Positions 14,805 to 14,933 of a stretch of 64,000 nt of DNA are shown piece after piece. Within the stretch, counting starts at the first letter, position 1, and each line of letters opens with the position of its first letter. The position numbers and the translations under genes were made by a program. The notes beneath the pieces are model-generated. The model ran no database searches and had not been told where the DNA came from. It saw only the letters and a list, made by a program, of their open reading frames with translations. Where the stretch lies: assembly GCF_988242995.1 (NCBI RefSeq), contig NZ_OZ547043.1; one strand, given 5' to 3'.

Positions 14805-14822
14805 CAGAGGGTTTTACTCATT

Positions 14823-14885
14823 CTGTTCATATCTGTTCATATTCTGCCGTAAGCCGTTCATCCTGACCAGTGCCGCTGTTCATAT
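14823..14885. promoter_or_regulatory. four decameric tor boxes (TorR binding sites) in torR-torC intergenic region
   Basis: ctgttcatat at 14823 and 14833 (tandem), ccgttcatcc at 14854, ctgttcatat at 14876. Confidence 0.8.
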
Positions 14886-14933
14886 TTACTCATTAAGATC
14901 GCTTCACTAAACCATAATTTTACAGGGGCTATT

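Follow-up and report, generated by a model that had tools for sequence, protein, structure and literature searches.

The window analyzed here, a 64-kb stretch of DNA, is part of an Escherichia coli chromosome and carries six tor genes arranged in the order torS, torT, torR / torC, torA, torD, the same as in K-12 MG1655. On the minus strand, torS (10284–13028) encodes a hybrid sensor kinase of 914 residues that matches the NCBIfam equivalog NF008543 with 1894 bits and covers positions 2–913 of the 914 present in the profile. It is followed on the plus strand by torT (13111–14139), encoding the periplasmic TMAO-binding protein of 342 residues (equivalog NF008185, 493.7 bits), the 3' end of which converges with that of torR and overlaps it by 28 bp (14112–14139), as it also does in K-12. 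The gene torR (14112–14804, minus strand) encodes a response regulator of the OmpR/PhoB family with 230 residues, matched over its full length by equivalog NF008034 with 426.5 bits at a cut-off of 275. The operon read in the opposite direction, on the plus strand, consists of torC (14934–16106), encoding a pentahaem c-type cytochrome of 390 residues (equivalog NF011606, full length, 883.5 bits), torA (16106–18652), encoding the TMAO reductase of 848 residues (equivalog NF011682, 1619 bits), and torD (18649–19248), encoding the TorA-specific chaperone (equivalog NF003442). All six open reading frames are full-length NCBIfam equivalogs that score far above the curated cut-offs.

Alignment of the region 7812–19317 of the window (11.5 kb) with K-12 contains no gaps, therefore none of the tor genes is frameshifted or truncated; the starts of torS and torD were taken from this alignment. 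K-12 served as the annotation reference, and E. coli strain 510016 was set aside as non-collinear through an IS1 deletion of torS and torT. The receiver domain of TorR matches the structure of TorR itself (PDB 1ZGZ), with the next structure matches being those of full-length BaeR, RegX3, and KdpE. With its family members ArcA, OmpR, and PhoB, TorR can be matched from end to end, through both the receiver and the winged-helix domain.

The divergent genes torR and torC are separated by a control region of 129 bp (14805–14933), bounded on one side by the minus-strand start codon of torR, with its end at 14804, and on the other by the ATG of torC at 14934. A sequence-only reading had placed four near-identical decamers in this interval and named it as the torR–torC intergenic region; the ends of the two reading frames coincide with it exactly, and the sequence, order, and place of the decamers were all confirmed when the letters were read again. 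All four lie on the plus strand. The high-affinity TorR site consists of box1 (14823–14832, CTGTTCATAT), its distal half, identified by exact match and by its published sequence, and of box2 (14833–14842, CTGTTCATAT), its proximal half, which directly abuts box1. They are followed by box3 (14854–14863, CCGTTCATCC), degenerate and of low affinity, and by the promoter-proximal box4 (14876–14885, CTGTTCATAT). The start-to-start spacing of the boxes is 10, 21, and 22 bp, and their offsets from the start of box1 (10, 31, and 53 bp) are approximately multiples of 10.5, which places all of the boxes on one side of the helix. The array is one of direct repeats, with a period of 10 bp in the box1–box2 pair, and no inverted repeat was found within it.

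Such a cluster is not repeated in the rest of the window. All three copies of CTGTTCATAT found on both strands of the 64 kb are located here, compared to 0.09 expected by chance, and three copies were not reached in any of 100 shuffles. The pattern TTCATA-N4-TTCATA is present only at 14826–14841. The looser motif CYGTTCATMY is found six times vs. 0.93 expected, with four of the matches falling within 63 bp of the control region. The other two are isolated singletons, one at 16729–16738 (minus strand, inside torA) and one at 29261–29270 (inside a rut gene), and both were rejected as boxes, being solitary and in a number that fits the chance expectation.

A second short repeat accompanies the array. 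The decamer TTTACTCATT is present at 14813–14822, directly before box1, and again at 14885–14894, after box4, with which it shares the last base of the box; the K-12 counterpart of the latter copy reads TTTGCTCATT. The pair is probably either coincidental or a vestige confined to Escherichia. The copy before box1 was considered as a functional box, as was TTACTCATTA (14886–14895) as a fifth box in the 10-bp register after box4; neither is conserved outside Escherichia, and both were rejected. The last bases of TTACTCATTA and of the downstream repeat copy belong to the −10 hexamer of torC.

Published work places the −10 element of torC within TTGCT(nnnn)AAGAT (PMC10845959), and the hexamer TAAGAT at 14894–14899 on the plus strand is therefore assigned as the torC −10, an assignment that is also based on the invariance of TAnnAT across genera. 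Since box4 ends at 14885, 8 nt before this hexamer, it occupies the place in which a −35 element would sit. The likely ribosome-binding site of torC, read from the sequence, is CAGGGG (14923–14928, plus strand), positioned 5 nt before the ATG and conserved in Escherichia and Citrobacter. Transcription of torC presumably starts near 14906–14907.

For torR, a plausible promoter can be proposed on the minus strand, with TGGTCA (14864–14869) as the −35 hexamer and CAGAAT (14841–14846) as the −10 hexamer, separated by 17 nt; we infer these exact hexamers from the sequence. The spacer of such a promoter contains box3, its start would fall inside box2, at about 14833–14836, and box2 would thus abut or overlap both the −10 hexamer and the start. 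A hexamer of the form xAxxAT is kept at the position of CAGAAT in other genera, and TGACCA, the plus-strand reading of TGGTCA, does not vary among Escherichia, Citrobacter, and Edwardsiella. A start inside box2 fits autorepression through the occupancy of box1–box2, and it agrees with the reported arrangement, in which this pair covers the torR start. A scan of 14650–15050 for consensus sigma-70 promoters and terminators, the candidate torR promoter included, found none, as expected for promoters that are weak and activator-dependent. A structured RNA or leader element has been suggested in the torC leader (PMC10845959). No Rfam match was found in the region even at an E-value of 10, and the fold of 14907–14990, calculated from a single sequence and thus a weak test, is no better than those of shuffled sequences (z = −0.25), so that neither analysis gives support to a structured RNA or riboswitch there.

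From the torR start codon through box4, the window is identical to K-12 MG1655 at every base. The only three substitutions in the intergenic region are all located downstream of box4: A for G at 14888, between box4 and the −10 hexamer, and T for C at 14920 and C for T at 14929, both in the 5' UTR or leader. When a 221-bp query spanning the intergenic region (14760–14980) was searched in 5426 complete E. coli genomes, it was matched in 5416 of them; in 3498 E. coli genomes this stretch is at least 99% identical, and in several listed strains it is 100% identical. The control-region allele of the window thus appears, by sequence, to be a common one. The 63-bp segment from box1 to box4 is identical in 5100 of the 5426 genomes (94%), with one to three changes in 315 more.

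The sequence-only reading had also taken the boxes as support for an intact TorS–TorR–TorT circuit. The genes of that circuit are indeed intact in the window, but this follows from the full-length reading frames themselves and not from the boxes, which alone are insufficient as proof. In strain 510016 (NZ_CP025851.1), the torR–torC control region is 100% identical to that of the window, whereas IS1A has replaced torS and most of torT and yccM (12630–14139 of the extracted locus); loss of the sensor thus need not entail loss of the tor boxes.

Comparison with other genera extends the analysis beyond E. coli. A search with TorR, limited to one genome per species, returned 80 loci with TorR homologues, in 12 of which torC is divergently adjacent; these belong to Escherichia, Citrobacter, Edwardsiella, Budvicia, Photobacterium, and Grimontia. 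All 12 have four TTCA-type cores (TTCAYA) with a spacing of 10/21/22 bp (10/22/22 in Grimontia), the third core always being the most degenerate. A TAnnAT hexamer, reading TAAGAT, TAGTAT, or TACCAT, follows box4 after a gap of 8 nt in every aligned genus. This arrangement is maintained with TorR identity down to 53–60% in Budvicia, Photobacterium, and Grimontia. In five genera, the box columns have a mean pairwise identity of 0.84 and the TTCATAT cores one of 0.91, compared to 0.42 for the remaining intergenic columns. The TTCATAT core of box1 is invariant in the eight aligned sequences from five genera, and only the TTCA core is invariant in box3. Such a pattern is that which would be expected from purifying selection acting on protein-binding sites and on their geometry. 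The number of boxes, their spacing, and the distance to the −10 hexamer are thus strongly constrained well beyond Escherichia, as far as Vibrionaceae.

Two further observations concern the region between and around the boxes. Between box3 and box4 lies the decamer CTGACCAGTG (14863–14872), which on the minus strand provides the TGGTCA of the candidate torR −35 hexamer; it shows no variation among Escherichia, Citrobacter, and Edwardsiella, an invariance that does not extend to Budvicia, Grimontia, or Photobacterium. In the type strain of E. albertii, NBRC 107761, the intergenic region is identical at 129 of 129 positions (1372–1500 of the extracted locus), whereas the surrounding 3.7 kb are 95.9% identical; at that level about five differences would be expected in the control region, and none is seen. 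This identity results either from strong constraint acting over the full control region or from a recent exchange.

Members of the OmpR/PhoB family bind direct repeats in a head-to-tail manner. In the case of TorR, induction of torCAD by TMAO has reportedly been described, and the box1–box2 pair is said to form a high-affinity site that covers the transcription start of torR, through which torR is reportedly negatively autoregulated, independently of TMAO and TorS. Box3 and box4 are said to be of low affinity, and the high- and low-affinity groups reportedly have to be near each other and share one helical face. The affinities, the dependence on phosphorylation, the autoregulation, and the phasing requirement are taken here from the literature, with which the two roles proposed for the boxes in the sequence-only reading, TMAO induction of torCAD and autoregulation of torR, are in agreement. 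The sequences and positions of the boxes, their identity with K-12, the geometry across genera, and the intactness of the cognate genes were established in this work.

The region recognized by TorR has been quoted with boxes 1, 2, and 4 as 5'-CTGTTCATAT-3' and box3 as 5'-CCGTTCATCC-3', and all four decamers of the window are equal to these published sequences; box3, described as a low-affinity site, matches 7 of the 10 box positions, and Salmonella TorR gel-shifts boxes 1, 2, and 4, whereas box3 alone is not shifted (PMC9239176). Phosphorylated TorR of E. coli binds the torCAD promoter, whereas phosphorylated ArcA and FNR do not (PMC10845959). The decamers are thus almost certainly the four tor boxes that form the TorR operator in the divergent torR–torCAD control region of E. 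coli. This operator is already known, and the window carries it in its usual E. coli form, with the textbook sites.

In the mechanism proposed for this operator, each decamer, with its core TTCAYAT, would be a site for one winged-helix domain of TorR. The tandem box1–box2 would be the high-affinity site, occupied by TorR whether phosphorylated or not, and since this pair lies over the −10 and the start of torR, its occupancy would repress torR, yielding an autoregulation that is independent of TMAO. TMAO would be sensed by TorT and TorS, leading to phosphorylation of TorR, and the phosphorylated protein would then bind cooperatively, on the same helical face, to the two weaker sites, box3 and box4, as well. 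With box4 in place of the −35 element, RNA polymerase would be recruited and torCAD transcribed, the contact with the polymerase being one that we infer from this placement.

Other explanations of the repeats have been considered. It is extremely unlikely that they are the sites of a paralogue, ArcA or another OmpR-family protein, serving a redox response of the tor promoter. The family scan did give ArcA as the nearest paralogue of TorR (215 bits; PDB 1XHE), and putative ArcA motifs overlap the TorR sites (PMC10845959), but the binding assay published in the same work largely refutes this explanation, and the four-box layout is seen at every divergent torR–torC locus examined. A neutral local tandem duplication, or chance, yielding repeats with no sequence-specific function, would account for the perfect duplication of box1 and box2 and for the TTTACTCATT pair that flanks the array. 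Its probability is nevertheless practically negligible, with three copies of the decamer in 63 bp vs. 0.09 expected per window, a box segment that 94% of complete E. coli genomes share without any change, and binding that has been published (PMC9239176, PMC10845959). In addition, the cores and their spacing are kept in six genera, with the spacers diverging down to 42% identity, which excludes both chance and neutral duplication.

The boxes might also be relics of a circuit that no longer functions in this strain, disabled either by the three substitutions in the promoter and 5' UTR or by defects located outside the window. Strain 510016, in which the boxes have outlived the circuit after IS1 deleted torS and torT, provides a precedent, and the window does differ from K-12 at 14888, 14920, and 14929. 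However, all six tor genes are full-length and gap-free in comparison with K-12, the 221-bp stretch is shared at 99% identity or higher by 3498 genomes of E. coli, the type strain of E. albertii is identical over the entire intergenic region, and we consider this explanation very unlikely.

As a TorR operator, the array can be compared with related systems. The tor boxes of E. coli K-12 have the same four decamers, in the same order and with the same 10/21/22-bp spacing and flanking genes, the window differing only by the three substitutions downstream of box4, which leave the boxes unchanged. In Shewanella oneidensis, the TorR site upstream of torECAD is reportedly a TTCATA-N4-TTCATA direct repeat, and it thus agrees with box1–box2 of the window (14826–14841) in its hexamer core and its period of 10 bp. 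Shewanella reportedly has a single tandem site, with torR not divergent from the operon, and the Shewanella loci retrieved here, in which no torC lies beside torR, are consistent with this layout. With the pho boxes of PhoB and the operators of OmpR, KdpE, and PmrA, the tor operator shares direct repeats with a period of about 10–11 bp, head-to-tail binding of winged-helix domains, and a promoter-proximal site positioned just upstream of the −10 hexamer in place of the −35. The pho boxes differ in their consensus, which is of the CTGTCAT type compared to TTCATA in tor. Unlike them, the tor operator is split into one tandem high-affinity pair and two separated low-affinity boxes, and its high-affinity pair also serves the divergent regulator gene as an operator. 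In Salmonella enterica, a different species, the same box sequences are reported for torCAD, with Kd values of about 1–3 µM for TorR in EMSA, and the GTTC cores are there also targets of the Dnd phosphorothioation proteins (PMC9239176).

The strain therefore carries the standard cis-regulatory switch of TMAO respiration, with the boxes unchanged from the laboratory reference, and because the switch is unchanged, the K-12 model, with its induction of torCAD and autorepression of torR, is transferable to it. No open question is affected by this result; the small addition that it makes is the cross-genus constraint on how many boxes there are, how they are spaced, and how far they lie from the −10 hexamer. 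A broader reading would take the tor operator as a module of locked geometry that long predates E. coli, spanning Enterobacterales (Escherichia, Citrobacter, Edwardsiella, Budvicia) to Vibrionaceae (Photobacterium, Grimontia), in which phosphorylated TorR bound at box3 and box4 also subjects torR to TMAO-dependent control. Since box3 lies in the spacer of the putative torR promoter, binding of phosphorylated TorR at these two boxes could add such a layer. Published work reportedly describes the control of torR as TMAO-independent, and we can only speculate along these lines, considering the broader reading unlikely.

Several differences from K-12 were observed elsewhere in the window. At about 7804–7812, the 9-kb group-4 capsule cluster etk-etp-gfcEDCBA with IS1D, located between appA and cspH in K-12, is absent, and appA is followed almost immediately by the cspH region; the same adjacency is present in strain 510016. 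At 42383–44381, the K-12 block pgaABCD-dgcT-IS3-ymdE-ycdU is missing, and the segment between phoH (41276–42340) and the gene of tRNA-Ser(GGA) (44572–44659, minus strand) contains instead two open reading frames, one of a DUF2726 protein (42903–43589) and one of an IS200-like Y1 transposase (43767–44276). At least 80% of this 42383–44381 segment is held by only 2 of the 5426 complete E. coli genomes, and the phoH–DUF2726 junction without the IS was found in ST2747 and in soil isolates. This suggests, from gene content, an unusual or environmental lineage of Escherichia without the PGA biofilm genes. The gene efeU (37652–38491), annotated in K-12 as a pseudogene, is an intact reading frame here, with a full-length match to the FTR1 iron permease. 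Compared to K-12, the intergenic region between putP and efeU (37445–37558) is shortened by about 320 bp, with ~113 bp, unaligned, in the window vs. 436 bp in the reference.
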